In this document: piece after piece, positions 12,293 through 52,005 of the stretch
Layout: each line of letters opens with the position of its first letter
How positions within the stretch are numbered: the stretch's first letter is position 1
Source: a virus
IMG/VR virus record: IMGVR_UViG_3300028800_000061
Coordinates: 32,001-96,000 of that record
Length of the DNA stretch: 64,000 nt
Direction: 5' to 3' (one strand)
Program-made: the position numbers and the translations under genes
Notes under the pieces: model-generated
The model's input: the letters and a program-made list of their open reading frames with translations, nothing else
What the model was told of the DNA's origin: nothing
Database searches by the model: none

Positions 12293-12300
12293 ATCTTGAT

Positions 12301-12528
12301 ATGGCAGAGCTGCAGGCCATCCTCGCCATCCAAATCGCCGGGGACCGTCCCGGCGGCGGGCGCACCTACTCCCACGAAGAAATCCTCGACGGGGCCGACT
12401 GGGCAACACGTGCGCAAGTACTGGATCACATGCTCAGCCAGATTGACTTGCGATACCGCACAGCCACAGAGACCTCACGAGCCGATATGACCATCCTCAA
12501 TTTCACCGTCGAGCCGAACAACCTGTGA
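12301..12528 (+). CDS. hypothetical protein
   Basis: 75-aa ORF directly after promoter. Confidence 0.55.
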   Translation: MAELQAILAIQIAGDRPGGGRTYSHEEILDGADWATRAQVLDHMLSQIDLRYRTATETSRADMTILNFTVEPNNL

Positions 12529-12566
12529 TGGAACGGCAACTCCGCGGTGGCGAGGTGGGCGGCTAG

Positions 12567-13244
12567 TTGCTGTACCTCGCAAACCCGTCAACGACGCCTA
12601 TACGGCAAGCCATGACCAGCTATGAACTCGGCTGCATCATCACCCCCAGGCAAGGCAACCGCCTCCCCAGGGAAGCGCTCTGGGGTGCCGACAACGGGTG
12701 CGGCCCTGGAAAAAACGGCATGATCGGCCAAGGGTTCCCCGGCTACGAGCCCTTCCTGGGAATGCTCCAAGACCACGCCGACTACGCCGACGATTGCTTG
12801 TTCGCGGTAGCACCCGATGTGGTAGGCGATGCGGACGGGACGCTTAAACGGTCCAAGTGGATGCTCGAATGGATCCGTTACGCCGGCTACCCGGCCGCGC
12901 TCGCCGCTCAAGACGGACTGGAGAACCTGACGGTGCCCTGGGATGATTTCGACGCCTTGTTCATCGGCGGCAGCACAGCGTGGAAACTTGGCGCCGCGGC
13001 CCGCCGGCTGATCGCCGAAGCGAACCGGCGGAACAAGTGGGTTCACATGGGCAGGGTCAATACACTGAAACGTCTCCGGTACGCGGCCACGGTCGGATGT
13101 CACAGCGTAGATGGCACGTTCCTCACATTCGGCCCGGATATCAACCTGCCGCGGCTGCTCCGGTACCTCCGGATCGTCAACACGCAACCAACTTTGTGGG
13201 CGTCGAGCTGGCCGCCGCCGCTCCCGTTGACGGTCGCAGCATGA
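12567..13244 (+). CDS. TGT-fold (DpdA-like) transglycosylase
   Basis: DNG, PDVVGD, QDG, FIGG, VHMG, SVDGT in TGT motif order. Confidence 0.65.
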   Translation: MLYLANPSTTPIRQAMTSYELGCIITPRQGNRLPREALWGADNGCGPGKNGMIGQGFPGYEPFLGMLQDHADYADDCLFAVAPDVVGDADGTLKRSKWMLEWIRYAGYPAALAAQDGLENLTVPWDDFDALFIGGSTAWKLGAAARRLIAEANRRNKWVHMGRVNTLKRLRYAATVGCHSVDGTFLTFGPDINLPRLLRYLRIVNTQPTLWASSWPPPLPLTVAA

Positions 13245-13831
13245 CCGGCCAGATCCATGTAGCAGGCGAGGGTCAGCAGCTTGCCTTGCCGGGAACGCTA
13301 TGGCCAGCAGGCTGCGACCGCGGGCAAGGAGACCCGCTGTTCTTCGGGAAGCTTAAAAAGGACCAGGCGAACGACCTGATCGCAGCGTTCGGTCACCCAC
13401 TCGGCCCGTTCACCCGCCCGTTCGGGTACCAGGCATGGGGCCTGGCGATCGATGGGCAAGCCGTCGCTGTCGCGATATCCGGATCAACTGTCGGCGCGAC
13501 CTCTGCCGGATACAAGCGCAGGCAAGTTGTCGACCTCGCCCGGATCGCACGCCACCCAGACCACCCAGGAGTCATGAGGGTCATGCTGCGCTTGTGGCGG
13601 GACTACCTCGCGCCGCGGTGGGATTACGGAGACGGGCAGGTGCAAGCCGCTGTCTCCTACGCACTGCCCGGCAAAGCAGGGAACCTGTACCGGTTCGACG
13701 GGTGGAAGCTTCACGGGTACTGCAAACCGTGGGCTGGCGGCGGCACCTGGAGCAAACCGTCGAAAGCGAACGGGATGGCTGATGGGGTAAAGAAGCTGTT
13801 CTACTACGAGTACCCGCAGCGGGTGGCGTGA
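13241..13831 (+). CDS. Mom-like GNAT nucleic-acid modification protein
   Basis: DLARI, VSYA....GNLYRFDGW motifs; ATGA coupling. Confidence 0.6.
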   Translation: MTGQIHVAGEGQQLALPGTLWPAGCDRGQGDPLFFGKLKKDQANDLIAAFGHPLGPFTRPFGYQAWGLAIDGQAVAVAISGSTVGATSAGYKRRQVVDLARIARHPDHPGVMRVMLRLWRDYLAPRWDYGDGQVQAAVSYALPGKAGNLYRFDGWKLHGYCKPWAGGGTWSKPSKANGMADGVKKLFYYEYPQRVA

Positions 13832-14919
13832 TGCTCGCCACTGAGGCAGATGTACTGCGGACCCTGAGAACCGGCACTTACACCGTCAGCGAACTGTACG
13901 ACCTGTGTGAACAGCGAACAGTGGTCGGCCGGGATGGTGGCCAGGACCCCATCCCGGCCCACTCAGGTGATCTCCGGTGGAAGCGCCGCGTTCGCGGCGC
14001 TCTGGAGACTCTGCGCCGGGCCGGCCGGGCCGAGCGGATCGACCGGACCTGCTGGGCAATCCAGGGCACACCCCGCCAGCCGGCCCGCCTGCTGCTGATC
14101 GTGACCGGCGCAACCCCGCGTGACTTCGAACTGCGATTGCAGGCCGCGGCCGAACTGCTCGCCGAACTGGACGAGCCTGCCGACCTGGTGCTGTGCGACC
14201 CGCCGTACGGACTGCGCCGCGGCCGCGGCCACTACACCGACGGCAACGGGTACCGCCGCGACCACACCAGCGTGATCGGCGGCTACGTCGACGTCGACCC
14301 GGGCGAGTACTCCGACTTCACCCACGATTGGATCCGGGCCGCAGCCGCTGCGCTCCGGCCGGCCGGGCAGCTCGCCACGATCACCGGACCGCAGCGTGCC
14401 GCGATCGTGCAGTGCGCCGCCGAGCAGGCCGGGCTCACCTGGGTCAGTACCATCGCCGCCCGGCGCACTTTCCCGCTGGCCACACTGCGCCGGCCAGCCG
14501 CAGCGCATTGGGCCATCACGGTCATGTGCCGCAACGCGCTGAGCAACCCTCGCCGGGTGTTCAACCCGCCACCCGATCTGCCCAGGGCCCGCAGCGGCCA
14601 CCCTTACCCGCTGGACTGGTGGGCTGACGGCAACGGCCGGGCCGACCGCCCCGGGCTGCTCCGCTACGACAACAGCCTCCCGCTTCCCCTTGTCCTGCGG
14701 GCGGTCACCGCGTTCAGTAACCGCGGCGAGCACGTCGTAGACCCGTTCCTCGGCGCGGGCACAACCGCTGTCGCCTGCTGGAAAACCGGCCGGCGCTTCA
14801 CCGGCAGCGACCTGAATCCAGCCGCCGTCCGCTTCGCAGCCGCACGGCTGCTCGATGAGCACGCCTGGCCGGATGAGCGCGAGCCAGGATTGTTTCCCGC
14901 AATGGATGTCGCGCCGTGA
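13828..14919 (+). CDS. N6A/N4C DNA methyltransferase (beta class) with N-terminal winged helix
   Basis: DPPY precedes DPFLGAGTT. Confidence 0.88.
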   Translation: MMLATEADVLRTLRTGTYTVSELYDLCEQRTVVGRDGGQDPIPAHSGDLRWKRRVRGALETLRRAGRAERIDRTCWAIQGTPRQPARLLLIVTGATPRDFELRLQAAAELLAELDEPADLVLCDPPYGLRRGRGHYTDGNGYRRDHTSVIGGYVDVDPGEYSDFTHDWIRAAAAALRPAGQLATITGPQRAAIVQCAAEQAGLTWVSTIAARRTFPLATLRRPAAAHWAITVMCRNALSNPRRVFNPPPDLPRARSGHPYPLDWWADGNGRADRPGLLRYDNSLPLPLVLRAVTAFSNRGEHVVDPFLGAGTTAVACWKTGRRFTGSDLNPAAVRFAAARLLDEHAWPDEREPGLFPAMDVAP

Positions 14920-15461
14920 GCACCGGCCTGGCCGCGATCAACCTGGACCTGATCGAGGACGCGGCGAACATCCTGGCGTGGCGCGGCTGGTGGGAACCCG
15001 GCGATGAGGACAGCTTCGTACCCGACGAGCTCGTCACCGAACTGATCGAGGCTGCCCGGGCTCCTTGCGAGGTCTGCAGCACACCGGAGGGGGTGTGCAG
15101 CACACCGGACGAGGTGGCCGATCACTTCCTCGCCCGCAAACAGGAAGAGTGGGAACGGTCCTGGCCGGCGTGGGCATGCAACTGCGGTCACGTTTACAAA
15201 CTGCTCAATGAAGAGTTCTTCGAGGTCGCAGACAACGGGTTCCACGGCCCGTTCTGCGCCGGCATGGCCGGGGAGCAAGATTGCCCGCACCCATCCTGCG
15301 CGAGCATTCTGCTCGGCGGCCACCTGCCGGGGGATCGCGCCGGGTGCATCCGCCGCGGCAGCAAGAACCGGGTCAAGCACAGCGACGCATGCCGGGGATG
15401 CGGCTGCAAGTTCGCGGATACGATAGCCGACCAGCTCAACCCGCAGCAGGCCCTGTTCTAG
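14916..15461 (+). CDS. Cys-rich hypothetical protein
   Basis: GTGA overlap; internal 21-nt duplication near 15072-15113. Confidence 0.65.
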   Translation: MSTGLAAINLDLIEDAANILAWRGWWEPGDEDSFVPDELVTELIEAARAPCEVCSTPEGVCSTPDEVADHFLARKQEEWERSWPAWACNCGHVYKLLNEEFFEVADNGFHGPFCAGMAGEQDCPHPSCASILLGGHLPGDRAGCIRRGSKNRVKHSDACRGCGCKFADTIADQLNPQQALF

Positions 15462-15565
15462 AAGATCCTGGCAGTAAAGTCGTGCACCTGCGCTCAGCGG
15501 GTTGCGGCACAATCGTGCGGGCGGTGATCTGAATTAGTCCATCGGGATCACCGCCCGCGCGCCTT

Positions 15566-15640
15566 GCCCCTCTAGCCCAATCCGGCAGAGGCGCCACGTT
15601 CAGGGCGTGGAGGTTCGGGGTTCGACTCCCCGGAGGGGCA
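15566..15640 (+). tRNA. tRNA-Leu(CAG), short variable loop
   Basis: cloverleaf; loop TT-CAG-GG. Confidence 0.9.
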
Positions 15641-15644
15641 CTTG

Positions 15645-15732
15645 GGAGGGGTCGCCTAGTCGGCCTATGGCGCGTCACTGCTAATGACGTTGGGCATTGC
15701 GTCCCTCGCGGGTTCGAATCCCGCCCCCTCCG
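15645..15732 (+). tRNA. tRNA-Ser(GCT)
   Basis: long variable arm; loop CT-GCT-AA. Confidence 0.93.
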
Positions 15733-15735
15733 CAC

Positions 15736-15828
15736 GGAGACGTCGCGCAGTGGCCTAGCGCTCTAGTCTTGAAAACTAGCAGAGCACGGGAGTGTCTCTC
15801 GTGGGTTCGAATCCCACCGTCTCCTCCA
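15736..15828 (+). tRNA. tRNA-Ser(TGA), encoded CCA
   Basis: long variable arm; loop CT-TGA-AA. Confidence 0.93.
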
Positions 15829-15829
15829 A

Positions 15830-15903
15830 GGGCATGTAGCTCAGCCGGTTAGAGCACTCCCCTGATAAGGGAGAGGCCGGAGGTTCAACTCCTCCTGTGC
15901 CCA
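15830..15903 (+). tRNA. tRNA-Ile(GAT)
   Basis: cloverleaf; loop CT-GAT-AA. Confidence 0.95.
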
Positions 15904-15994
15904 CTGCCAGCAGGCCACTGCGGCCGGGGTTGTCGCAGCGACAACAGGGCCGGGAAGCCCCCGGGCCGCGGGCCTGCTGGCCACGACGGGAGCG

Positions 15995-16264
15995 GTGGTG
16001 TCAGGGCGGCAGCGGCAGCGGAACCGGCTCGGGCGGCGGCAGGGGTGGATCTGCCCGTGGTGCCGCCTCCCGATCACCCGCGCCCAGTTCGCGGATGCCA
16101 CCCGCGACCATGTGATCCCGAAGTCCCACGGAGGCACTGCGGTACTGCGGAACCTCCAGTTGCTGCACGGCGAGTGCAACGCGGAGAAAGCGAGCCGGTG
16201 CCTGGGTTGCCCCCGGTGCGTCCCTGGCGAGATAGCTCAGCCGGTCAGAGCGTCCCGCTCATAA
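15995..16264 (+). CDS. HNH endonuclease
   Basis: CPWC...DHVIPKSHGG...NLQLLHGECN. Confidence 0.85.
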   Translation: MVSGRQRQRNRLGRRQGWICPWCRLPITRAQFADATRDHVIPKSHGGTAVLRNLQLLHGECNAEKASRCLGCPRCVPGEIAQPVRASRS

Positions 16265-16302
16265 CGGGATGGTCGCAGGTTCAAGTCCTGCTCTCGCTAC
16301 CA
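16226..16302 (+). tRNA. tRNA-Met(CAT) elongator, encoded CCA
   Basis: cloverleaf; loop CT-CAT-AA. Confidence 0.9.
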
Positions 16303-16376
16303 GTACGCCAACATGCAGTCCTAGATAGGGGAGGTGAACGGGTTGAAACCCTGCGGTAAACAGATACGCATCGCAG

Positions 16377-16450
16377 GCCCTGTTAGCTCAATTGGATAGA
16401 GCAGCGGACTTTTAATCCGCGAGTTCTGGGTTCGAGTCCCAGGCGGGGCA
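16377..16450 (+). tRNA. tRNA-Lys(TTT)
   Basis: cloverleaf; loop CT-TTT-AA. Confidence 0.95.
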
Positions 16451-16454
16451 CAAT

Positions 16455-16526
16455 GCGCTGTTAGCTCAGTGGATAGAGTGACTGCCTTCTAAGCAGGGGA
16501 GCGGGGTTCGAATCCCTGACGGCGCG
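16455..16526 (+). tRNA. tRNA-Arg(TCT)
   Basis: cloverleaf; loop CT-TCT-AA. Confidence 0.9.
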
Positions 16527-16541
16527 CAAAGCACAAGGCAA

Positions 16542-16615
16542 GCCCTGGTGGGGTAATTGGCCAGCCCGCCACCCTCTCACGGTGGAGACTGCCGGTTCGA
16601 ATCCGGTCCGGGGTA
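16542..16615 (+). tRNA. tRNA-Glu(CTC)
   Basis: cloverleaf; loop CT-CTC-AC. Confidence 0.92.
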
Positions 16616-16616
16616 C

Positions 16617-16692
16617 GGCGCGGTAGGCAAAATGGAGAAGGCCGCCAGACTTTCAACCTGGTGACTTGCGGGTTCGAGCCCCGTCCGCGCTA
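16617..16692 (+). tRNA. tRNA-Glu(TTC)
   Basis: cloverleaf; loop CT-TTC-AA. Confidence 0.88.
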
Positions 16693-16706
16693 CTATGGGA
16701 TCACGA

Positions 16707-16780
16707 CGCGGGGTGGAGCAGCTCGGTAGCTCGGTGGGCTCATAACCCACAGGTCGCAGGTTCAAATCCTGTCCCCGCTA
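16707..16780 (+). tRNA. initiator tRNA-fMet(CAT)
   Basis: C1 mismatch; GGG/CCC anticodon stem. Confidence 0.95.
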
Positions 16781-16895
16781 CCGCCGTGCCGGGTCGGCTC
16801 CGGTCGCGGCTAATTACGGCTGGCAGACGTGCTAGGGCCCGTGGCGGATTGGGGATCTAGCCGACCCCGCGTGAAGCGCGACGGGCACCAACCTT

Positions 16896-16967
16896 TCCCC
16901 CGTAGCTCAATAGGCAGAGCGTCCGGCTGTTAACCGGTTGGTGTTGGTTCAAGTCCAGCCGGGGGAG
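16896..16967 (+). tRNA. tRNA-Asn(GTT)
   Basis: cloverleaf; loop CT-GTT-AA. Confidence 0.94.
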
Positions 16968-16971
16968 CGAT

Positions 16972-17046
16972 GGTCCTGTAGAGCAGGTTGGAGTGCTCGC
17001 CACCCTGTCAAGGTGGAGGTCGCGGGTTCAAATCCCGTCGGGACCG
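16972..17046 (+). tRNA. tRNA-Asp(GTC)
   Basis: cloverleaf; loop CT-GTC-AA. Confidence 0.95.
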
Positions 17047-17050
17047 CTAA

Positions 17051-17122
17051 ACCCGGTTAGCTCAGTGGCAGAGCACCACGATGACAGCGTGGGGGTCGGA
17101 GGTTCGGTTCCTCCACCGGGTA
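17051..17122 (+). tRNA. tRNA-Val(GAC)
   Basis: loop AT-GAC-AG; T loop TTCGGTT. Confidence 0.9.
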
Positions 17123-17314
17123 CAGGCACCTGGGAGCCTGGCTTCAAATGGCAGGAGCAAAGTGATAACGCGCCGAAAGGCTATGCCCACTCCGGTGGGC
17201 GGGTAGCGGTCGCCCAGGTGCCGTTGCACACCGAGAGGATCGCCTTGCTGACCGGGTATGTCTTGCTGCCGGGTGATTGTGACAGCCCGGCCGCGGCAGC
17301 GTTAGGCTCCCGGC

Positions 17315-17869
17315 ATGCTTCTCTCTGACCGGGACATCGCCGACGCGATCGCGGCCCGCGACCTGGTGGTAGACGGCGAGCTGGCCAGCGACTCATTCCA
17401 GCCTGCCAGCCTCGATCTGCACCTTGGCGCCGAGTTCCGGGTGTTCCTCAGTCACCGGGTCGCTTGCATCGACACTGCCGGCGGCCAGGGGGATCTCACT
17501 GAACCGGTAGTGATCTCCGACGGTGAGCCGTTTGTCCTGCACCCCGGCGAGTTCGCCCTCGGCTGCACTGTGGAGGCCATCACTCTCTCCGATGATCTGG
17601 CCGCCCGGCTCGAAGGCAAATCCAGTCTCGGCCGCCTCGGCCTGCAAGCGCACTCCACCGCCGGGTGGATTGACCCAGGGTTCAGCGGGCAGATCACCCT
17701 GGAGTTGTCCAATGTCGCCCCGGTACCGATCAAACTGTGGCCTGGCATGAAAATCGGCCAGCTGTGCTTGTTCCGCCTGGGCGCCCCGGCGTTGCGCCCG
17801 TACGGGCACCCGGGCCTCGGCTCCCGTTACCAGGGGCAGCGAGGCCCGGTGCCGTCCCGGGCTGGTTAG
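17315..17869 (+). CDS. dcd: dCTP deaminase
   Basis: [51 protein letters not shown]. Confidence 0.95.
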
Positions 17870-18216
17870 TGGCTGGAGTAGGAGCTGGTGGTCCGTCGCC
17901 ACCGTTCCGTCCACGCCCACTGGTCTAGCACCAGTTGGGTGAACGACTGGTCATCCATCTGCATGGTGTCCGTCACGGACCACCTGAGCATCTCGATCGC
18001 CGCGTCGTAGTCGGCGGTGTGGTTCTCCGGCTCGGGCAGGTCGGCGTGCCGGTCCGCCTTCTGGCCGGCCCGCAGTTCGGCGATCCGGTCCTGGTGCCAG
18101 CCGATCATCTGCTCCCGGTAGGCGACGATAGCCTCCTGGTAGGTGGCGAGGTGCGCGGCCCGGTTGGCTTCCAGCGCCTCGAGCAGCCTGGCGCGGTCAA
18201 CGGTTACTGGTCTCAT
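17866..18216 (-). CDS. phage hypothetical helical protein
   Basis: PEPENH..DYD.AIEML...LVLDQW.W; protein-like composition. Confidence 0.75.
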
Positions 18217-18221
18217 TTCTT

Positions 18222-18295
18222 GCTCCCATAGCTCAGTGGATTAGAGCGCCGCCCTCCGGAGGCGGGTGCCGCAGGTTCGAGTCCTGCTGGGGGCG
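18222..18295 (+). tRNA. tRNA-Arg(CCG)
   Basis: cloverleaf; loop CT-CCG-GA. Confidence 0.95.
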
Positions 18296-18298
18296 CGC

Positions 18299-18727
18299 TT
18301 AACTGCTCAGCGGATCTGTGCGCGGTGCCGGCCACTCGGGGGCCGCTGTGAAATCGGCCGGGTCGACGCTGCCGAGCTCGCAGACGCGGGTGACCAGGTC
18401 GATGTACGCGGCGCTGGGATCGTCGCCGCGGCCGATCGGCCACCGTTCCTGGTTGGCCCGGTGCCAGAAATCCTGGCACTCGATGTCCGATGCGGCCCAG
18501 TCCGTCCAGGGCGTCTCGGTCAGCATGTGCGGGTCCACGGGGAACGCCAGCCAACTGCGACCCTCGTAGGTGCCGTTGTACCTGGCCTGCACAACAACCG
18601 CAGGCTCGGCTTCTGGCCGGTTACCGAAACCACCTGCGGTGATGTAAAGCTTCGCGGTCAGCATTATTTTTCCGCCGGGTGCACCGGGCCACTCAACGAA
18701 GATGCTTCGCTCATTCACACCGGGCAT
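18299..18727 (-). CDS. hypothetical protein
   Basis: RYNGTYEG..WLAF...GRGDDP; fits exactly between two tRNAs. Confidence 0.65.
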   Translation of the reverse strand: MPGVNERSIFVEWPGAPGGKIMLTAKLYITAGGFGNRPEAEPAVVVQARYNGTYEGRSWLAFPVDPHMLTETPWTDWAASDIECQDFWHRANQERWPIGRGDDPSAAYIDLVTRVCELGSVDPADFTAAPEWPAPRTDPLSS

Positions 18728-18743
18728 TGTTTCACGTATCGTT

Positions 18744-18816
18744 ACCCCCGTGGCCCAACGGATAAGGCGCCAGACTACGGATCTGGAGTGTGCCGGTTCA
18801 ACTCCGGCCGGGGGTA
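18744..18816 (+). tRNA. tRNA-Arg(ACG)
   Basis: cloverleaf; loop CT-ACG-GA. Confidence 0.94.
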
Positions 18817-18875
18817 CAAAGGCTTTCCGGTCTGAACGTCCCATTCCGCCGGCTGCACGGCTGGTGCAGATCAGC

Positions 18876-19034
18876 ATGCCTTACGCCACGTTCGCTGTGG
18901 CATTCGCCGATGGTGTGATTGTCGCTGCCGCGCCCATCGCCCAGTGGGCAGTAGGTAAAGATGTGAGCACTGTCAAGGACTACTACCAGCGGAAAGGTGC
19001 TGTGTTCGCGCACGTCCCAGGCACACCCGGTTAG
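18876..19034 (+). CDS. small phage hypothetical protein
   Basis: G.IV.AAPIA.W.VGK motif; start 18864 or 18876. Confidence 0.6.
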   Translation: MPYATFAVAFADGVIVAAAPIAQWAVGKDVSTVKDYYQRKGAVFAHVPGTPG

Positions 19035-19096
19035 CTCACCGGCAGAGCGCCTCGTTCACACCGAGGAGGCAGAGGGGTCGGCACCTTCACCGGGTA
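19025..19096 (+). tRNA. tRNA-Val(CAC), non-canonical T loop
   Basis: loop TT-CAC-AC; T loop GTCGGCA. Confidence 0.85.
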
Positions 19097-19130
19097 CAGG
19101 TCACCGTAAACTAGCCGGGTAACCGGCCTT

Positions 19131-19209
19131 GGTGGGTGTAGCTCAGTCAGGCCAGAGCGCCCGGTTGTGATCCGGGTACGCATCGGTTCGAATCCGGTCA
19201 CCCACCCCA
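19131..19209 (+). tRNA. tRNA-His(GTG) with G-1 and CCA
   Basis: G-1:C73; loop TT-GTG-AT. Confidence 0.95.
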
Positions 19210-19266
19210 AAAGAGCCCTGCTGTGCGGGGCGGAGTGACAATGCGGGAAGGCTGGACCGGGCAAGC

Positions 19267-19716
19267 ATGGGCAAGGGCCAGGGTGCGGGCAACCCAACCG
19301 GCAAAGGACGCGCACCTAGGAAGCCCGTAGCGCGCACGGACAGGAAACGCTGGTGCAAAGACCAGCATGGTGTCAAGCATGTCCCCCATCTCGTTTTCAG
19401 GCCCCGGGGCGTGGCATACACGGAGTGCCGGCTAGCACGCGATTTTGAGGTATGGTGCCGGGATGGCTGGGTGTGCATGCACAGAGACGAGTGCGCCCGA
19501 TGCGGCCAGGTGCTCCGGCCCCGGCTCGGCGGCATTCCCCGCGAGGAATGCCCGACCTTTCAGCAAGCGATGAAAGACGAAACCCGTGAGATCCTCGCCG
19601 ACCCGCTCGTGCTGATCCGCATCCGCCAGGCGCAAGCTGTGGTGGCGGCCGGGAACATTACCCGCAGCGTGCAAGCAGTCCGGTCACTTCTGCGTGTCCC
19701 CGGGAACCGCACATGA
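19267..19716 (+). CDS. Cys/His zinc-binding hypothetical protein
   Basis: RWC..H...W.C.H...CxxCG..LR...EC as in 10504-10992. Confidence 0.7.
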   Translation: MGKGQGAGNPTGKGRAPRKPVARTDRKRWCKDQHGVKHVPHLVFRPRGVAYTECRLARDFEVWCRDGWVCMHRDECARCGQVLRPRLGGIPREECPTFQQAMKDETREILADPLVLIRIRQAQAVVAAGNITRSVQAVRSLLRVPGNRT

Positions 19717-20114
19717 CCACCTGGCAACCCGGTGACATCTACGAGGATTGCGCGTTCCACCCGGTGCTCTGCTACCTGGTTATCCGCCGCCGCCGCGAGG
19801 GCAGCCCGTGGTGGCGGCTCCTGCTCGCCGACGACTGGGATCTGTGCGGGATATCGCTGCTCGACGGCTCCCGGCCGCGCACATGCTCAGTGAAACACTG
19901 CGCACCGCAGCGGATCACCCTCGACCAGGCGCTGAGCATGCGCGGCACATGGGAGCAAGGCCACCGGCGCCCAGAAGATCACGCGTCAGCGGAGGCTGAG
20001 CTGGATGCGATGCTCACCAGCATGCGCACAATCGATGCGCTGCCGGATGCCACCGGTAAACGGGTCGTGGCGTGGCTCATGTCCCGGTTCAGGGTCAGCT
20101 GCGGCTGTGATTGA
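19713..20114 (+). CDS. hypothetical protein
   Basis: ATGA overlap; PGDIYEDC.FHPVLC...GISLLDGS..R.CS..HC. Confidence 0.7.
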   Translation: MTTWQPGDIYEDCAFHPVLCYLVIRRRREGSPWWRLLLADDWDLCGISLLDGSRPRTCSVKHCAPQRITLDQALSMRGTWEQGHRRPEDHASAEAELDAMLTSMRTIDALPDATGKRVVAWLMSRFRVSCGCD

Positions 20115-20123
20115 TTTGAGCTT

Positions 20124-20205
20124 GGCAGGTTGCCCGAGCGGCCAAAGGGAACGGTCTGTAAAACCGTCGTGTAATGCTGCGCTGGTTCGAATCCAGCACC
20201 TGCCA
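20124..20205 (+). tRNA. tRNA-Tyr(GTA)
   Basis: long variable arm; loop CT-GTA-AA. Confidence 0.94.
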
Positions 20206-20207
20206 CG

Positions 20208-21092
20208 ATGAAACCCACCCGCATCCCCTCCGGGCATGTCCCTCAGGTGTGCTGGCGCCTGCGAGGCCGCTGGCTCGTGGCCTACCTCGACATCAACACC
20301 CGGGCCCGGTGGAAAGTGCTCCGCGGGTTCAGCGCGTGCCTCCGGTTTGGCCCGCTTGACCCGCCAGACCCTGATGACCCGTACTGCTACCGGTCACCGT
20401 GCTGGGGGTTCACCCTCGATGTCCAGTCAGCCGATGACGCACCGAACAGGCTGCACCTGATGGGCCGCCGGTACATGGCCATCATCGGCCTGCCGGGCCG
20501 GGAGCGGGTGTTCACGGAGACCGGCCGGCTGGGCCTGGCGGTCATCGGCGAGTGGAAGCGCGGCCGGCTGCGGATCATGCGGTCACAGGCGTGGGACTGG
20601 CGGGCCGATGAGTGGGCGGGCCGGTGGAAGGTGCTCGCCGTCCACCCGGCCGACCACCGGGAACGGTGGGAGCGCGCCCACCCAGCGCAGGCGGCGCAGA
20701 ATGCGGCCCGGCTCCGCCGCAGGCACATGTGGGCGGTCTTCAGCGCGGACGCCCTCCCGGACCGCTGGTACGTGTGCCCGGGGCACATAGACCACGCGCG
20801 GGCCCGGCGGGTCACATGCACGGCCTGCGGCCCGCTGAAGGCAGCGGAGGTGTTCGATCCGGGCCGGTGGTGGCTCACCCCCTGGACTCACGCGCAGATC
20901 GCAGTACTTGGCGCCGGGCAGAACAACCCAGCCGGCCGGCCGTACTTCCCGTACTTGTGCCGCGGCGGACTGCACGACGAGCGGGAGGAACCTGGCCCCC
21001 TGCTGATCCCGCACCTGAGCGGCTGGCGATGCCCGGACAGTGCGTGCCCGTACACGCAAAACTGGGCGCACGCTACCGCAGTCCCGGGCTAG
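20208..21092 (+). CDS. hypothetical protein
   Basis: 294-aa Trp/Cys-rich ORF filling the gap between two tRNAs. Confidence 0.65.
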   Translation: MKPTRIPSGHVPQVCWRLRGRWLVAYLDINTRARWKVLRGFSACLRFGPLDPPDPDDPYCYRSPCWGFTLDVQSADDAPNRLHLMGRRYMAIIGLPGRERVFTETGRLGLAVIGEWKRGRLRIMRSQAWDWRADEWAGRWKVLAVHPADHRERWERAHPAQAAQNAARLRRRHMWAVFSADALPDRWYVCPGHIDHARARRVTCTACGPLKAAEVFDPGRWWLTPWTHAQIAVLGAGQNNPAGRPYFPYLCRGGLHDEREEPGPLLIPHLSGWRCPDSACPYTQNWAHATAVPG

Positions 21093-21158
21093 TAGCTCAG
21101 CGGATAGAGCGCCTGCCTCCTAAGCAGGATGCCGCCAGTTCGATTCTGGCCTAGCCCA
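21086..21158 (+). tRNA. tRNA-Arg(CCT)
   Basis: cloverleaf; loop CT-CCT-AA. Confidence 0.94.
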
Positions 21159-21162
21159 CGAT

Positions 21163-21237
21163 GGCCGTGTGACCGAGTGGCACAGGTAGCAGCCTGCAAA
21201 GCTGCGCACCCCGGTTCGAATCCGGGCACGGCTTCCA
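21163..21237 (+). tRNA. tRNA-Cys(GCA), encoded CCA
   Basis: cloverleaf; loop CT-GCA-AA; U73. Confidence 0.95.
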
Positions 21238-45102: not shown

Positions 45103-45333
45103 ATGACGGGCGGTAGGCGTCTCAACGCGGCACCAGGTGATGAGCAGCTGCTCACAGCGGGAGAGGTCGCAGCAAAGTTCCATGTCTCTCCCAAGACAGT
45201 CGGCGCCTGGGCGGCGCAGAGCAAAATCCACTCAATCCGGACCCCTGGCGGCCACCGCAGGTTCCGTGAGCAAGACGTGCGCGCGTTCCTCAACGGAGAA
45301 GGCGGCGGCACCCGGCTGCAGGCCGCAGGGTAA
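45103..45333 (+). CDS. bldC: BldC-family MerR-like regulator
   Basis: LLT..EVA..F.V.PKTV..WA...K..SIRT.GGHRR.RE..VRA.L matches recalled BldC. Confidence 0.8.
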   Translation: MTGGRRLNAAPGDEQLLTAGEVAAKFHVSPKTVGAWAAQSKIHSIRTPGGHRRFREQDVRAFLNGEGGGTRLQAAG

Positions 45334-46928: not shown

Positions 46929-47514
46929 TCACCATCTGATTCGTCGCGGGTTTAGCCCCCCGGCGCCCGCGGCGGCGCAACCCCCCATGTGGCGGGCGGG
47001 TTGCGAAGGTCCCCGGCAGGGCTACATCTCCCGTGACCCTGCCGGGGGCCGCACCGCATACAAGGTCATACCGCCGTAACTGAACGGTGACCGCAGGTCA
47101 GTAATCTCCTGACAGGCCGGAAACGTCCAGTTAGTAGCGGGCAGCCTCACATGCCAGCGCACCCCTGGGATGCACCCCCGGGACTGCGCTTCGAGCCGCC
47201 ACCCTGATGACACCAGGACAGGACCCTTGACCGGCCACAATAACGCCCCGACTCCAGTAGCGGAACCACCAACCCCGCAATGGTCCCAATCCGCACAGCA
47301 ACAACAAGCTGGCCTCGACGCACTGGTGGACACCGCGGTCGGTGCCGCGCTGACCCGCCCGTTCGCCTCAATCACTTTGCCGGCATCGAATCCAGGGTCA
47401 CGCCGGCGTAGAAACCAGGAGACATCTCGTGCGCGCGTTCCTGCCCACCCTCATGATGATCACGCTCGGGTCGGTGGCTGTGACGGCGATAGTCGTGGTG
47501 CTGGCCCGGCACAC

Positions 47515-48948
47515 ATGGCGCCGCGGCAAATCACTCCGGGAGCCCTGAACGCCCACTACAACATCCCGGTCTGCTCCCTGCGTCGACGGGAGGCCCGCGG
47601 CATCATCCTGACGTCGATCCTTCTCGCAGGCATGGGAGTTCGCTTCGGGTTCCTGGTCGCCTCGTACCCTGCGTTCTGGCCGCTAGAGGCTGTCTGGCTG
47701 GTGCCGCTCGCCAGCATGGCATTCCAGTGGACGGTGTCATGGCGTGACCGGCCCGTGGCTCCTGATCCCCGGGTGGAGCGCTGGCTCGCGCGTCTCAACG
47801 TCACGGTCAACATTCCTGTCTACAACGAGGACCCCGCGCTCCTTGACCGATGCTTGTTCGCGCTCATCAACCAGTCCAGGCCACCTCAGAGAATCGACGT
47901 GGTCGATGATGGCTCGAAACTCGACTACACCCTCCTGCGATCCCATTGGGAACGGCAGTGGCCAGGTGGCCCTGAAATCCGGTGGTTCCGCCAAGCAAAC
48001 GCCGGGAAGAAGCATGCGCAATCCCTGACGTTCGCCAGCGCTCCCAACGCCGACGTCTTCGTGATCATCGACTCAGATACCTGCCTTGACCACCGGGCGC
48101 TAGAGGAAGGGCTGCGGCCGTTCGCCAACCGCAGCGTCGCCTCGGTGGCAGGCATCGAGCTCGCGATGAACGCGGCCAAGAACTGGCTCACCAGGACTGT
48201 CAGCGTCCGCGCCCTGTTTTTCCAGATGCTCCCCTGCGCCGCGCAATCGGCAGTAGGTGACGTGCTCATCAACAGGGGTGCGTTCTTCCTGATCCGGGCT
48301 TCGGTTGTCCGAGAGTATCTGCGGGCATACCTGGACGAGACGTTCCTTGGCCGGCCGATAAAGCTCGGCGATGACGCTGCGCTCACCCTGTTCGCCCGGG
48401 CGAGTGGCCGGACCGTGCAGCAGTCCACCTCGTTCGGCCTCACCATGTACCCAGAGACCCTCTCGCACCACTTGCGGCAGTGGACTAGGTGGATGCGCGG
48501 CTCCACAATCCGGACCGTGTGGCGGCTCCGGTATCTCTCCCCGCTGACTTTCGGCTGGTGGTTCAGCGTGCTGGGGGTCTACTCGCTCTGCATGTCTACA
48601 GCTTTCCCGGTGATGCTCACCGTCATGTGGCCGAACTCCGAGCGGGCTATCGAGTACGTGATCGCGGTCATGATCCTCTGGGGTTACGTTTACGGCCTGC
48701 GGTCCTTGTCGATCCGCCGCAGCGACCAGACCTTGGCCTACCAGATCGGATCCTTGCTGGCTTATCCGTCAGTGCTCCTATGGGGACTCTTTGTGCTGCG
48801 CCCACTCCGGTTCTACGGCACGTGCACATTCCTCAAGCAGAACTGGGTGACGCGCGTCAACGGCGCTGAGATCGTCTTGGCTCCCCAGGCGCCAGAGCCT
48901 CACGCCGCCGGCGCACCGGAAGCGGCCACAGCCGGCGTTGCCCCATGA
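47515..48948 (+). CDS. processive GT2 polysaccharide synthase (hyaluronan/chitin synthase-like); true start possibly 47429 across a frameshift
   Basis: IPVYNE, DDGS, GKK.A, DSD, GDD, QxxRW, flanking TM helices. Confidence 0.88.
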   Translation: MAPRQITPGALNAHYNIPVCSLRRREARGIILTSILLAGMGVRFGFLVASYPAFWPLEAVWLVPLASMAFQWTVSWRDRPVAPDPRVERWLARLNVTVNIPVYNEDPALLDRCLFALINQSRPPQRIDVVDDGSKLDYTLLRSHWERQWPGGPEIRWFRQANAGKKHAQSLTFASAPNADVFVIIDSDTCLDHRALEEGLRPFANRSVASVAGIELAMNAAKNWLTRTVSVRALFFQMLPCAAQSAVGDVLINRGAFFLIRASVVREYLRAYLDETFLGRPIKLGDDAALTLFARASGRTVQQSTSFGLTMYPETLSHHLRQWTRWMRGSTIRTVWRLRYLSPLTFGWWFSVLGVYSLCMSTAFPVMLTVMWPNSERAIEYVIAVMILWGYVYGLRSLSIRRSDQTLAYQIGSLLAYPSVLLWGLFVLRPLRFYGTCTFLKQNWVTRVNGAEIVLAPQAPEPHAAGAPEAATAGVAP

Positions 48949-49910
48949 AGCGGCGCAGCGTAGGAGCCGCCACGGTGATCGTGATCCCTGCCGCGCTGCT
49001 AGGGGTGTTCGCCGCGCTGGTAGTCGCACATCATGTGACCCAGCCGGGCATCTATACCGCACCGGCGCCTGGCACTCCCGTTCACGCCACCGCAGCCCAA
49101 GGGCGATACGTAGGCGTCTATGAGCCCGGCTCTCCAGGCTCCTACGCGCCAGTTCGGGCATTCGAGGCGACATCTGGCGTCAGGCCCAACCTTGCGCTCT
49201 ACTACAGCAGTTGGTGGGAGCCGTTCCGTTTGCAGTTCGCTAAGGCTGCCTACACGAACGGCGCCATGCCGTTCGTGCAGATGATCCCCCATGGCCGGGG
49301 CGTGTCCGTGGACAGGGTTGCCCAAGGTCAGTACGACGGATACCTGCGGACCTTCGCCGAGCAGGTCAGGCGGTACGGTCATCCGGTCGTTCTGGGCTTC
49401 GCCGCCGAAGCCAACGGGTCCTGGTACAACTGGGGCTTCAAGCATCTCTCACCGAAGGTGTGGATCGCAGCGTGGCGGCACGTAGTGACCGTCTTCCGGG
49501 AGCAGGGCGCTGACAACGTCACCTGGCTGTGGACCATAAACCGCAGCGGGAAGCGCACTGGCCCGGTCCGCGACTGGTGGCCCGGCTCCACATACGTCAA
49601 CTGGATAGGCATCGACGGCTACCTCGAGGAACCGCCGTCTACATTCAGCGGCGTGTTCGCGCCGACCATCGCCCAAGTCCGCCAGTTCAGTAACGACCCC
49701 ATACTGCTCGCCGAAACGGCAGTCGGCCCGCTCGCGGACCCAGCAGGGAAGATCCCCGGGATGTTCGACAGCATCCGGGCCGATCACCTGCTCGGGCTGG
49801 TCTGGTTCGACAAGGCCCAGCACAACGGTGTCTACCACCAGGACTGGCGACTAGAGGATGATCCGCCAGCACTCGCCGTCTTCCGGAAGGCTGCCAATAA
49901 CTTCAAATAA
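48945..49910 (+). CDS. GH26 glycoside hydrolase, exported
   Basis: N-terminal TM; E.NGSWY.W, WPG..YV.WIGIDGY, PILLAET. Confidence 0.85.
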   Translation: MKRRSVGAATVIVIPAALLGVFAALVVAHHVTQPGIYTAPAPGTPVHATAAQGRYVGVYEPGSPGSYAPVRAFEATSGVRPNLALYYSSWWEPFRLQFAKAAYTNGAMPFVQMIPHGRGVSVDRVAQGQYDGYLRTFAEQVRRYGHPVVLGFAAEANGSWYNWGFKHLSPKVWIAAWRHVVTVFREQGADNVTWLWTINRSGKRTGPVRDWWPGSTYVNWIGIDGYLEEPPSTFSGVFAPTIAQVRQFSNDPILLAETAVGPLADPAGKIPGMFDSIRADHLLGLVWFDKAQHNGVYHQDWRLEDDPPALAVFRKAANNFK

Positions 49911-50098
49911 CCGGGACCAGGCCGCGCCCTGGCAGGAATTCAGTCATACGGCCCCTTTGGGCTTGTTAGGTCCAATGTGCCGCCGAATGACCCAGCGAAT
50001 CCCTGTAGCAGGCGGTATGGCGCTATTCTTTGACCGCCCGCAAGGTGTAACAGGTGCGATGCAGTGAATGGTCTCACGGGGCAGGGGGTGAGCATTCC

Positions 50099-51598
50099 GT
50101 GACCGTGGCAACGGTAACTCAGGCGTACAAGTACGAGCTGGACCCAACCCCCTCACAGGCGCGGATGTTCGCCTCCCATGCTGGTGGGGCCAGGTTCGCG
50201 TACAACTGGGGTATCGCCACGATCATTGCCGCACTGGATGCGCGGCAAGCTGAGAAGGACGCGGGCGCCGAGCCGACCGTTCCGGTGCCCGCCCACTTCG
50301 AGTTGTGCAAGATGTGGACGGTGTGGAAGGACACCGCCGAGTGGACCGACCGCGCTACCGGGAATGTCACTGATGGTGTGGGGTGGGTCGGGGAGAACTT
50401 CGTCGGCACGTACCAGGCGGCGTTGCGTGATGCGGCCGGCGCATGGAAAGCGTTCTTCGCGTCCCGTTCGGGGAAGCGGAAAGGCCGGCGGGTCGGCCGG
50501 CCCCGTTTCCGATCGAAAGGAAAGGCCCGGGAGTCCTTCCAGGTCCACGGCGCCGTGTTCCGGCTGGCGCCCGGGCCTTCGGCCAAGTACCCGGGCACAC
50601 GGCGGGTCCGCGCGCACACACCAGCGCCGATGGCCTCGTACATAATGCTGCCGAAGATCGGCCCGGTCCGCTCGCACGAGTCGACACGGAAACTGCGCCG
50701 CAGGATTGACAACGGCACCGCGAGGATTGTCCGCGGCACCGTAGCGAAAAACGCCGCAGGCCGGTGGCACATCGCGATCACCGCCGAGGTGCAACGGGAC
50801 GTGCGGCTGAAGCCGTCTGCCCGGCAGCTGGCGGGCGGCATCATCGGTGTCGACTTGGGTGTGCGGGACACGATCACTTTGTCCACCGGGGAGTCTGTGA
50901 AGAACCCAGCTCACCTTGAGCGCTCGCTGCGCCGGCTGGCGGCCGCGCAGCAAACTGTCGCCCGGCGTACCAGGATCGGCCGGCCGTCCTCGGCGCGGCG
51001 GTTGAAAGCTGTCGAGCGGGTCGGCCGGATCCACACCCGGGTCAGTAATCTCCGGCAGGATTACCTGCACAACCTGTCCACCCGGCTGATCCACGAGCAT
51101 GCTGGCATCGGGGTGGAAGGTTTCGACCTGCAGCAAGTTGCAGCCCGCGGCGGCAGGAGCGTGCCCCGGCGGGTGCGACAGGTGCGGAACAGGCTCCTGG
51201 CCGGATCCGCACTCGGAATGTTCCGCTGGCAACTGCAATCGAAAAGCGCCTGGTACGGGTGCCAGGTGCTGGTCACCGGCGCGCAAGCACCGTCGGGCAG
51301 GACATGCTCCCGGTGCGGGACGGCAAAAGCCACGCCGATCCCGCCCCATCTGGAGCTGTTCCGGTGCCCGCAGTGCGGCCACGTCCAGGATCGGCGGCTT
51401 AACACTGCCCTGGTTCTGGCGCAGTTCGCGCGTGAAACGAAAACGACGTCCGGGACTGGCTCGGAGTCGCTAAACGCCCGTGGAGAGGATGTAAGCCCCG
51501 GGCCCGTCCGCAAGGGCAGGACCGGGCGATCCTCGTTGAAGCGGGAAGCCCGCCCCAGGGGGCAACCCTCGGGTAAGACGGGCACCCCCAGCACGTAA
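50099..51598 (+). CDS. tnpB: TnpB-family protein with substituted third RuvC Asp; no adjacent tnpA
   Basis: AYKYELDP, RFAYNWG, GVDLG, VE, CxxC...CxxC, DRRLN in place of DRDxN. Confidence 0.88.
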   Translation: MTVATVTQAYKYELDPTPSQARMFASHAGGARFAYNWGIATIIAALDARQAEKDAGAEPTVPVPAHFELCKMWTVWKDTAEWTDRATGNVTDGVGWVGENFVGTYQAALRDAAGAWKAFFASRSGKRKGRRVGRPRFRSKGKARESFQVHGAVFRLAPGPSAKYPGTRRVRAHTPAPMASYIMLPKIGPVRSHESTRKLRRRIDNGTARIVRGTVAKNAAGRWHIAITAEVQRDVRLKPSARQLAGGIIGVDLGVRDTITLSTGESVKNPAHLERSLRRLAAAQQTVARRTRIGRPSSARRLKAVERVGRIHTRVSNLRQDYLHNLSTRLIHEHAGIGVEGFDLQQVAARGGRSVPRRVRQVRNRLLAGSALGMFRWQLQSKSAWYGCQVLVTGAQAPSGRTCSRCGTAKATPIPPHLELFRCPQCGHVQDRRLNTALVLAQFARETKTTSGTGSESLNARGEDVSPGPVRKGRTGRSSLKREARPRGQPSGKTGTPST

Positions 51599-51670
51599 GG
51601 GCTGGGCGTCCCCAACCACCTGCCGAAAAGCAGGCAGCACAACTCAACAGAGGCAAGCGCAGACGTTCGA
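51465..51670 (+). ncRNA. putative omegaRNA scaffold plus guide overlapping tnpB 3' end
   Basis: AACGCCCGTGGAGAGGAT...ATCCTCGTTGAAGCGGGAA pairing and GNRA hairpins; boundaries estimated. Confidence 0.55.
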
Positions 51671-51955
51671 CCGGTGGGCGAGGGGAGGCTCGCGAATCCC
51701 CTGCTGGCTACTGCTGATGTCCGGGACGAGGGGCCTAGCGCAGGTAACGTCCCATGCCGGCCATGCTGGGCGAGAGGGAGATCACCAGTCACGGGGGTGA
51801 GAGGTGTAGCAGTGGTGCCCCGCGTGGCCCGGGCCGCTCACACGGAGGGGATGCGGGGAAGTGAACGACTTGCCTGGTACCGGGATGAGGGCATCGGCAC
51901 ATTGCTGGGGCTGAGAGCAGTGGCAGCAGGCCGGCGGCGAGAGCAGTAGAGACAC

Positions 51956-52005
51956 AAAAAAGGCCGCCCCTGCTACCCGGCACGAAGCCAGGTAGCAGGG
52001 GCGGC
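51956..52005 (-). terminator. intrinsic terminator of the late operon
   Basis: ~19-bp GC stem followed by T6 on minus strand. Confidence 0.85.

Follow-up and report, generated by a model that had tools for sequence, protein, structure and literature searches.

A TnpB-fold effector gene in a soil actinophage genome

The 64,000-nucleotide stretch that we analysed (the window) belongs to the 159.8-kb genome of a soil actinophage. It carries a single-copy gene for a TnpB-fold effector together with the following genes and terminator.

45103-45333, plus strand: 76-aa HTH_17/MerR-like protein
47515-48948, plus strand: GT2 processive glycosyltransferase, NodC/PgaC-like
48975-49910, plus strand: GH26 glycoside hydrolase
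50099-51598, plus strand: Cas12n-like/TnpB-fold effector ORF (P0004), RuvC triad D-E-R
51963-52005, no strand assigned: 19-bp hairpin terminator that closes the convergent gene blocks, U-tract on the minus strand

The effector ORF is intact (50054-51598). Its probable start is GTG 50099, which is preceded by a Shine-Dalgarno-like site, GGGGGTGAG, and gives a protein of 499 aa; an in-frame GTG at 50054 provides an alternative start. The Pfam domains HTH_OrfB_IS605, OrfB_IS605 and Cas12f1-like_TNB were detected, and with them the architecture of a transposon TnpB (HTH_OrfB, OrfB_IS605 with RuvC, and a zinc-finger TNB). The zinc finger (CxxC...CxxC) is intact, as is the ORF, in agreement with a first-pass annotation of this DNA. 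The AF2 model of the effector has a mean pLDDT of 86, with a C-terminal tail (residues 452-499, pLDDT <50) that is predicted to be disordered. The leading Foldseek matches of the model were TnpB, Cas12f and Cas12n (E 2e-23 against ISDra2 TnpB), and the top PDB match by sequence was RdCas12n (9J09; E 4e-44, 154 bits).

The Pfam architecture, with IS607_TnpB as the top NCBIfam match, would suit a decaying IS200/IS605- or IS607-type element that had landed beside GT2-GH26 by chance. However, the NCBIfam score (283 bits) is under the 350-bit cut-off, the gene is single-copy, and no tnpA of resolvase or Y1 type was found in the whole 159.8-kb genome, which bears out the annotated lack of tnpA.

An Arg replaces the third RuvC Asp across a clade

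Residue-by-residue HMMER alignments of the effector to ISDra2 TnpB (8bf8/8h1j) and RdCas12n (9j09) placed the three catalytic positions as follows.

50852-50854, plus strand: RuvC-I Asp codon GAC (P0004 D252), the Asp of GVDLG, aligned with ISDra2 D191 and RdCas12n D287; 116/116 of the clade
51116-51118, plus strand: RuvC-II Glu codon GAA (P0004 E340), the Glu of GVEGF, aligned with ISDra2 E278 and RdCas12n E386; 116/116 of the clade
51395-51397, plus strand: codon CGG (P0004 R433), Arg in place of the catalytic RuvC-III Asp; 116/116 clade members have Arg, the 4 sister sequences Asp

The D-E-D triad is not intact in the effector. The second Arg of DRRLNTA aligns with the third catalytic Asp, which is D484 in RdCas12n (PMC12216341) and D361 of ISDra2 TnpB in chain numbering, not D363 as previously given. 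These alignments confirm the earlier call of an Asp-to-Arg replacement with the Asp and the Glu kept. The change is not a read error, in keeping with the earlier argument: Arg occupies RuvC-III in 116 of the nearest 120 homologues (~30 clusters at 50% identity). The Arg-bearing members span 41-69% identity, and the change is conserved under purifying selection rather than being private decay. This is the opposite of the Asp-keeping homologues in random contexts that the annotation had associated with a decaying IS. The clade shares further changes (G341, R256, R360, R363, T399-G400-R401, E/D419 and T436), and the altered VEGF and PSGRTC motifs, which had been read as drift, are real and conserved clade-wide. 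The phage effector departs at only two of ~95 highly conserved positions, both conservatively (K138R and T399S).

The altered triad could belong to an RNA-guided nuclease that is active with a rearranged site, in which the Arg stands in for metal B or another carboxylate (Asp343 or Glu/Asp419) makes the site complete. Asp252 and Glu340 are kept throughout, and the clade has gained acidic residues at 343 (Asp in 104/116) and 419 (Glu or Asp in 109/116; Arg in the sister clade). A census paper has argued that conserved RuvC-III alterations imply retained activity (PMC10691335), and the authors of the TldR definition demanded at least two mutated RuvC residues, since a lone change is often the sign of a rearranged site that is still active, and leads to spurious 'dead' calls. 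Against this, Ala substitution at any DED residue ends cleavage in TnpB and Cas12 (PMC12721324), and the co-acquired substitutions are mostly to Arg, comparable to DNA-clamping Cas12m. Position 343 is Asn in 12/116 members and in the sister clade, and in the model it N-caps helix 344-349, which suggests that the role of this residue is structural and not catalytic. We consider an active nuclease possible but rather unlikely.

The clade lies within array-bearing Cas12n-like effectors

When 50%-identity representatives were searched exhaustively, RR-type sequences made up 27 of the 33 best matches, and DRD types appeared from rank 30. The RR (D-E-R) clade was monophyletic in the tree with an SH-aLRT support of 100, and its sister group consists of canonical, array-bearing Cas12n-type (type V-N) effectors. 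Sister DRD proteins (L171, L172) carry the same arrays and RNA as D-E-R loci. The phage effector groups with P0005, which has an array, and P0006, which is linked to Cas1/Cas2 (support 100). The effector's terminal branch (0.30) is not much above those of its array-bearing neighbours. On this phylogeny, the Arg is best placed as a single, ancient acquisition inside a CRISPR-array-bearing Cas12n-like clade. The D-E-R members occur in actinobacteria and their large phages.

Two transposon-based readings were rejected. A freshly domesticated transposon gene does not agree with the position of the effector inside a CRISPR-array-bearing Cas12n-like clade. The decaying IS is refuted by its closest homologues, which all carry the Arg and are array-linked, in contexts that are not random, and by the tree position; we give it a negligible probability.

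The scaffold RNA is retained and the CRISPR array is lost

The region around and beyond the ORF 3' end contains the following elements.

51441-51650, plus strand: tracrRNA/omegaRNA-like scaffold, overlapping the ORF 3' end, where it codes for the disordered tail
51607-51613, plus strand: anti-repeat element B, CGTCCCC, which in relatives pairs with the repeat 3' end GGGGACG
51641-51650, plus strand: conserved AAYTCAAYAG element
51665-51692, plus strand: relic of the first CRISPR repeat, GTTCGACCGGTGGGCGAGGGGAGGCTCG, ~16/28 identical to the consensus and in register with the first repeats of relatives
51693-51725, plus strand: candidate fixed guide or fossil spacer, 33 nt directly following the first relic, by the 28+33-nt register of relatives
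51776-51803, plus strand: second repeat-like relic, PSSM score in the top 0.028% genome-wide

Arrays were found in 24 of the 30 non-redundant D-E-R loci with DNA. They have 28-nt repeats and 33-nt spacers (61-nt period) and begin 60-110 nt past the stop codon, after the scaffold. Cas1/Cas2 lie near the effector in two D-E-R phage loci, and phage G003 has a Cas2 match above the cut-off and a weak Cas1 match beside the array. Two related loci, L010 and L141, have some spacers in common and others that differ. Arrays with spacer turnover and Cas1/Cas2 remnants would suit an immune nuclease.

Retention of the 3' RNA scaffold, as annotated, is supported by a match to Rfam RF03015 (Transposase-2 RNA) at 51538-51610 (48 bits against a gathering score of 42.7), partly inside the ORF. 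RNAalifold analysis of 14 array loci revealed compensatory CG-to-UA changes at two repeat:anti-repeat pairs in 2-3 sequences; in L176, CATCCCC is paired with GGGGATG. In alignments of relatives the AAYTCAAYAG element sits between the anti-repeat and the first repeat, and is therefore not a private guide. The guide start formerly proposed at 51651 follows this element, upstream of the first repeat in relatives, and was not upheld.

No CRISPR array was found in the window or in the whole 159.8-kb genome of this phage, and neither Cas1 nor Cas2 in the whole genome. The first repeat relic is immediately preceded by a ~22-nt deletion. The PSSM score of this relic, -0.16, ranks in the top 0.034% genome-wide, but real repeats reach at least 15.5. 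Two relic-level matches were seen against ~0.1 expected in 340 nt. The relics are statistically detectable, yet far under functional scores. Judged from sequence comparison, the array loss is secondary, because the closest relatives retain arrays. Collectively, we are highly confident of the D-E-R clade identity and of the loss of the array in this phage.

The locus might be a non-functional leftover, from which the array and adaptation genes were deleted while the effector gene is not yet degraded. The genome without array, Cas1 or Cas2, the repeat relics with the deletion ahead of them and the lack of a guide target in the phage genome (below) fit this reading, as does the frameshift in another solo copy, L014 of Streptomyces odonnellii. 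It is opposed by the intact ORF with its two conservative departures, the modest terminal branch, an RF03015 match still over threshold, and a sequence identical in four other rhizosphere runs. Protein and scaffold of this phage look constrained, and we consider a mere leftover unlikely.

Candidate guides and the GT2-GH26 neighbourhood

Three candidate guides, including 51693-51725, had no target in the phage genome at ≤4 mismatches per 20 nt, in line with the annotation, which had found no convincing target, and the best 15-mer guide matches in this genome were at chance level. A conserved guide, which the annotation had proposed to seek among homologues, was not found. A surviving guide, if any, would more likely lie after the relic repeat, at ~51693, and the phage effector has one fixed guide at best.

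GH26/GT2/HTH_17 linkage was seen in 5 of ~20 D-E-R loci. GH26 homologues, with or without GT2 and the HTH_17 protein, adjoin the effectors of L091, L138, L140 and L142 in rearranged gene orders; GT2 homologues lie upstream of the effectors in L140 and L142, and HTH_17 homologues near those in L091, L138, L140, L156 and L157. The adjacency noted in the annotation thus recurs in four other loci, but GT2/GH26 are absent beside P0006, the closest relative with neighbours on record, and also beside L089, L092 and L146. The linkage may therefore reflect only shared phage ancestry. A protein partner conserved across the D-E-R clade was not found.

A TldR-like domesticated regulator would use one fixed guide to a host or phage promoter and cooperate with the GT2-GH26 surface-glycan module. 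Consistent with this are the solo locus without tnpA, its intact ORF and scaffold, and the recurrent GH26 neighbours. Among the other solo D-E-R loci, L176 has kept one good repeat, for which its anti-repeat compensates, and in L011 scaffold and repeat are fused into a compact unit. The collapse of arrays into a single guide has a precedent in sigma-associated dCas12f (PMC10691335). However, the lineage is CRISPR-associated and not transposon-derived in situ, the relic repeat is badly degenerate, the candidate guides lack a target in the phage genome, and GT2/GH26 are missing beside four relatives. In the relatives that have both GT2/GH26 and an array, there are between 2 and 15 differing repeats and spacers instead of one conserved guide. 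We regard such a regulator as distinctly unlikely.

A putative non-cleaving DNA binder

On balance we favour, with some reserve, the interpretation that the phage gene is the orphan effector of a probably non-cleaving, DNA-binding Cas12n-like D-E-R CRISPR branch, which has lost its array and has at best one fixed guide. The loss of cleavage is, on the sequence evidence, an even call. In this branch of the type V-N (former V-U4) lineage, the RuvC-III Asp changed to Arg once, with a fixed set of further substitutions. A D-E-R system usually comprises the effector, a scaffold with the anti-repeat at its end, and an array in which 28-nt repeats alternate with 33-nt spacers. This phage has lost the array and any Cas1/Cas2, and degenerate repeat relics are all that is left. 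The ribonucleoprotein would recognise DNA through guide pairing without making double-strand breaks, with Asp and Glu holding one metal and the Arg occupying the second-metal position. Interference would occur via occlusion, as for Cas12m, Cas12c and TldR. The phage copy may act through a single fixed guide (the relic repeat and ~33 nt from 51693) or through crRNAs in trans; failing these, it may be heading for decay.

The relic repeat departs from the consensus at ~12/28 positions and its candidate guide has no target in the phage genome, which speaks against this interpretation. So does the invariance of the locus in all metagenome runs compared, which leaves no selection signal within the population. 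The kept Asp and Glu, array turnover and occasional Cas1/Cas2 would equally be expected of an active nuclease with a rearranged site.

The annotation had described a domesticated RNA-guided DNA binder. A non-cleaving, DNA-binding role is reasonable, but the effector is not an IS TnpB that was domesticated in this phage. A bolder reading, which we hold to be improbable, is that D-E-R effectors are a natural nuclease-dead miniature CRISPR family (~450-500 aa core), used by large actinophages and actinobacteria for RNA-guided silencing, whose array here became one guide that, with GT2-GH26-HTH_17, re-programmes host envelope polysaccharide. Array collapse into one guide would, in that reading, have re-created an omegaRNA-like transcription regulator in several lineages.

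If D-E-R effectors bind without cutting, nature would have turned a TnpB-sized nuclease into a programmable DNA binder by a second route besides that of Cas12m. The route would run through the Cas12n branch, the one nearest to TnpB, with big soil actinophages as its main carriers. The ~450-residue core would be of interest for compact CRISPRi or base-editor scaffolds, and the return of CRISPR effectors to omegaRNA-like systems with a single guide would be recorded in the solo derivatives found in this phage, Streptomyces and Jiangella. Should the proteins still cut, their RuvC site would be a natural one that works with an Arg replacing a metal ligand. In both cases, a 'dead TnpB' called from one residue in a genome scan has to be placed in its clade before domestication is concluded.

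Comparison with known systems

Cas12n (type V-N, formerly V-U4/c2c9; RdCas12n PDB 9J09, AcCas12n) is the best solved sequence relative of the effector. Both are TnpB-sized in architecture and have actinobacterial hosts, a tail at the C-terminus that is disordered and a tracrRNA that overlaps the ORF at its 3' end, and the immediate sisters of the effector have the DRD motif with the same RF03015 RNA and 28/33-nt arrays. The triad of Cas12n is the canonical D-E-D (D287/E386/D484), and the enzyme cuts dsDNA at 5'-AAN PAMs, whereas in the D-E-R clade the third residue is invariably Arg and other substitutions, many of them also to Arg, are fixed. Where Cas12n has its PAM-reading motif (PAPEK or HHDV), the clade has a conserved FQVHG, the aligned segment of the effector reading FQVHGAV in place of FTVPAPE. 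The adjoining array of Cas12n is absent from this phage's copy.

Cas12m (type V-M) is likewise miniature with a conserved non-canonical RuvC triad (clade 1 HEK/HQK, Cas12m2 HDD), and some of its clades have a basic residue at RuvC position III, as in the D-E-R clade. These clades bind DNA without cleavage (PMC10442227), and Cas12m interference operates through tight binding and transcriptional silencing. However, the kinship is distant (UnCas12m4a, E 5e-4). Cas12m works with a single crRNA and no tracrRNA, contains a coiled-coil insertion in REC2 and is altered at RuvC-I and II too, whereas the effector has a tracr-like RNA and its AF2 model lacks a large REC2 insertion.

TldRs (fliC-, csrA- and oppF-associated) resemble the effector in the TnpB fold, damaged RuvC and retained guide-RNA scaffold. 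They too can be phage-borne and lie beside genes for surface structures, and the phage effector may likewise work solo with one guide. In contrast, they descend directly from transposon TnpB, usually have at least two mutated RuvC residues and/or a C-terminal truncation, and their guides match a defined promoter. The effector has one changed residue, an intact zinc finger and C-terminus, a CRISPR-associated ancestry within the Cas12n-like clade and no target in the phage genome, and the TldR-like class proposed in the annotation is held to be unlikely.

Sigma-factor-associated dCas12f (RpoE-TnpB, Altae-Tran et al. 2023) belongs to another Cas12 lineage, has lost all three RuvC motifs and has an obligate sigma-factor partner. 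The path proposed for it is the same: the array is lost, and fusion of a half-repeat with the tracrRNA again yields an omegaRNA-like single guide.

The effector and its locus

The virus record that holds the window, a soil actinophage, is 159.8 kb long and 98% complete, with the window as its bases 32001-96000; typical tail and lysis genes are annotated. Three co-oriented genes concern us here:

47515-48948, co-oriented with the other two: GT2 glycosyltransferase
48975-49910, co-oriented with the other two: GH26 hydrolase
50099-51598, co-oriented with the other two: TnpB-fold effector ORF, 499 aa

The effector gene is single-copy in the phage genome. The next 430 nt are non-coding and end in a hairpin terminator facing the lysis/tail block, which is on the minus strand. 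Neither kind of tnpA was found in the phage genome, so the absence noted in the window holds genome-wide. The phage has 65% GC, and 36 tRNA genes are clustered at window positions 6970-21234, 35 of them on the plus strand.

Contigs carrying the locus come from several rhizosphere metagenome runs, a label also borne by all eight sequencing runs listed for it, none of which is an RNA run. Three of the eight contain at least 0.24 of the sampled words and the other five contain small shares. Contigs of four runs were compared; they are identical across the locus, and no array-carrying variant was found among them. A near-identity DNA search of the INPHARED phage collection with the locus gave no match, and a protein search of it retrieved relatives only below 31% identity. 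Pattern scans of viral contigs (GH26; single protein) gave nothing useful.

An altered RuvC triad is conserved across a clade

The effector was aligned with solved proteins using HMMER. The Asp of GVDLG aligns with D191 of ISDra2 TnpB and D287 of RdCas12n, the Glu of GVEGF aligns with E278 and E386, respectively, and the position of the third catalytic Asp (ISDra2 D361 in chain numbering; RdCas12n D484) is taken by the second Arg of DRRLNTA. These alignments, together with the CGG codon at 51395-97, confirm the altered third RuvC Asp described in the first-pass annotation; of the ISDra2 residues named there, D191 and E278 are correct and the third Asp is D361, not D363. The zinc finger and 3' RNA scaffold had been described as retained, and indeed the zinc finger is intact and Rfam RF03015 (Transposase-2 RNA) matches 51538-51610.

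Among the 120 best homologues in a 5.8-billion-protein collection, 116 carry xRRxN[TS]A and four carry DRDxNAA. Asp252, Glu340 and Arg433 are each invariant in those 116, so the Asp-to-Arg change, whose conservation had been put forward as a check, is found in 116/116 members of this Asp-Glu-Arg (D-E-R, or RR-type) clade. When 50%-identity representatives were searched exhaustively, about 30 RR-type clusters occupied nearly all of the top 33 ranks. Further positions are fixed apart between the clade and its DRD sisters, which keep the third Asp: G341 for D, R256, R360, R363, T399-G400-R401 for SSK, E/D419 for R and T436 for A. With its clade-wide invariant Arg and these fixed co-changes, the altered site is under strong purifying selection and is not decaying. 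At positions highly conserved in the clade, the window's protein has only two substitutions, each of them conservative, and its terminal branch in the maximum-likelihood tree is not unusually long.

The D-E-R clade is associated with CRISPR arrays

The array scan covered every locus obtained from genomes, viral contigs, metagenomes or individual retrievals. Arrays were present in 24 of the 30 non-redundant D-E-R loci that had enough downstream DNA, beginning 60-110 nt past the stop codon with a 61-nt period (28-nt repeat plus 33-nt spacer). Downstream of the gene for P0008, a relative 61% identical to the window's protein, lie about 22 degenerate 28-nt repeats. P0006 (65% identical) is encoded on a phage-like 116-kb contig, where its gene is followed by a 1.1-kb gene-free gap and then by Cas1 (weak) and Cas2 genes. 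In phage G003 (154 kb), short frames immediately 3' of the array contain Cas1 and Cas2 matches (C1:68644-68977, equivalent to ~8155-8490 of locus L092); the Cas2 C-terminal match is above the cut-off at 27 bits and the Cas1 N-terminal match is weak at 13.8 bits. These fragments may represent a degraded adaptation module. On a 283-kb phage-like contig, about 22 degenerate 28-nt repeats lie 3' of a D-E-R effector (L089:9584-10935) and are far more variable than those of other arrays; a group I intron is also present in this locus, on the minus strand at 15251-15505.

The four DRD sister proteins examined have the same RNA motif and arrays as the D-E-R clade. A quick maximum-likelihood tree placed IS-type TnpBs outside, then the DRD-plus-array clade, then the RR clade (SH-aLRT 100), and grouped the window's protein (support 100) with array-bearing P0005 and Cas1/Cas2-linked P0006. 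RNAalifold analysis of 14 loci revealed pairing between CGTCCCC, located just past the RF03015 core, and GGGGACG at the 3' end of the repeat, with compensatory CG-to-UA changes at two pairs in 2-3 sequences. At a Streptomyces sp. locus (L176:6560-6680), the altered repeat (GGGGATG) is matched by a compensating anti-repeat (CATCCCC). The D-E-R loci L010 and L141, which are closely related, have two spacers in common and differ in the others, which shows that spacer content changes by gain or loss. Genomic context thus identifies the D-E-R clade as CRISPR-associated.

Array loss at the window's locus

Neither a repeat model run with nhmmer nor a scan for k-mer periodicity detected a CRISPR array in the window or the whole genome, and no Cas1 or Cas2 was found in the 159.8-kb genome. 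The scaffold aligns with those of relatives and is conserved through the AAYTCAAYAG element (51641-51650), directly after which a ~22-nt deletion takes out the conserved pre-repeat element. The segment at 51665-51692 is in register with the relatives' first repeat and ~16/28 identical to it. This site and one at 51776 are in the top 0.03% of genome positions by repeat PSSM (two such matches versus ~0.1 expected), with scores near 0 against at least 15.5 for real repeats. On a manual reading, the relic repeat could pair with the anti-repeat across 9/10 positions. A near-palindromic 12-mer, GA(C/T)GTCCGGGAC, occurs at 51445-51456 (scaffold 5' edge) and 51716-51727 (fossil-spacer region); the copies pair with each other in the MFE fold, with a non-significant z of -1.6.

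Solo D-E-R loci also occur in Streptomyces, Jiangella and one metagenome contig. L176 retains a mini-array, made up of a single well-kept repeat and a 33-nt spacer with a second repeat that is weak, and another Streptomyces solo copy is frameshifted. In Jiangella anatolica (L011:5370-5400), the repeat 3' half (CCCGGGGATGACGG) lies almost directly 3' of the anti-repeat, a fusion that looks like a natural single-guide RNA created by linker deletion. The window's gene is thus an array-less member of the D-E-R branch of Cas12n-like CRISPR effectors. The first-pass observation of an altered RuvC site stands, and the interpretation given with it, a domesticated TldR-like regulator, is partly supported; the gene belongs to a CRISPR-array-bearing clade.

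Guides and targets

When 51611-51955 was compared with the phage genome by blastn-short, just two exact 15-mers were matched (window 9973-87 and 20218-32), both at chance level (E 0.04), and three candidate 20-nt guides had no match in it at up to 4 mismatches. Of the guide search proposed earlier, the part on this phage's genome gave no match above chance for any candidate. None of 83 spacers from relatives matched this phage, the L142 and L158 arrays had no match in the phage collection, and the L091 and L092 arrays showed no self- or cross-targeting among four virus records. The candidate guide of the Jiangella locus had one 2-mismatch match, judged to be chance since the site falls within an oxidoreductase gene, at its GxGxxG-coding start, and has no AAN PAM.

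The 11-mer AACTCAACAGA was ruled out as a guide for two promoters: it is the relatives' conserved AAYTCAAYAG element, and its two other sites are paralogous intergenic repeats in which agreement stops at 11 nt. Elements of the form AAGGACAA-N30-AACTCAACAGAAYTGT, paralogous and intergenic, lie past the window end at genome positions 123894 and 124802 and have 11 nt in common with the scaffold element at window 51641-51651; they most likely represent a regulatory repeat of the phage that has no connection with the effector.

Linkage to GT2 and GH26 is partial

The first-pass annotation had proposed that linkage to GT2 and GH26 be checked among homologues. GH26 homologues (42-52% identity) adjoin D-E-R effectors in L091, L138, L140 and L142, with GT2 homologues near those of L140 and L142; homologues of a 76-aa HTH_17 protein occur in L091, L138, L140, L156 and L157. 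Gene order differs between these loci, and all three homologues are missing beside P0006, L089, L092, L146 and the bacterial loci. The linkage, as judged from gene neighbourhoods present beside some D-E-R effectors and missing beside others, is real but partial. All-against-all clustering of neighbours, dominated by antisense ORF artefacts, gave no partner protein common to the clade. The linkage may stem from common phage ancestry or from an accessory island that these loci share, rather than from joint function.

Predicted activity and relation to known systems

TnpB/Cas12 cleavage is abolished when any one of the DED residues is mutated (PMC12721324), and Cas12m lineages whose triad reads HDD or HEK/HQK act by binding and silencing and do not cut (PMC10442227). 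Both precedents point to D-E-R effectors that would bind DNA without double-strand cleavage. Alternatively, the RuvC site could be rearranged and still active: Asp and Glu are invariant in the clade, and the authors of a TnpB/Cas12 census argue that conserved RuvC-III alterations imply activity (PMC10691335). As for neighbouring residues, Asp343, which is specific to the clade, resembles a helix N-cap in that Asn replaces it in 10% of members and in sisters, and Arg433 may have a charge-swap partner in Glu419.

No description of the D-E-R branch was found in the papers searched, and within that literature the branch was previously uncharacterised. The significance lies mainly at the family level; the window's own copy may act as a regulator with a fixed guide or may be a leftover. 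The closest solved relative is RdCas12n (9J09), a type V-N (formerly V-U4) nuclease with a disordered C-terminal tail and a tracrRNA that overlaps the nuclease's own ORF (PMC12216341). The window's protein resembles it in that residues 452-499 fall below pLDDT 50 in an AF2 model with a mean pLDDT of 86.
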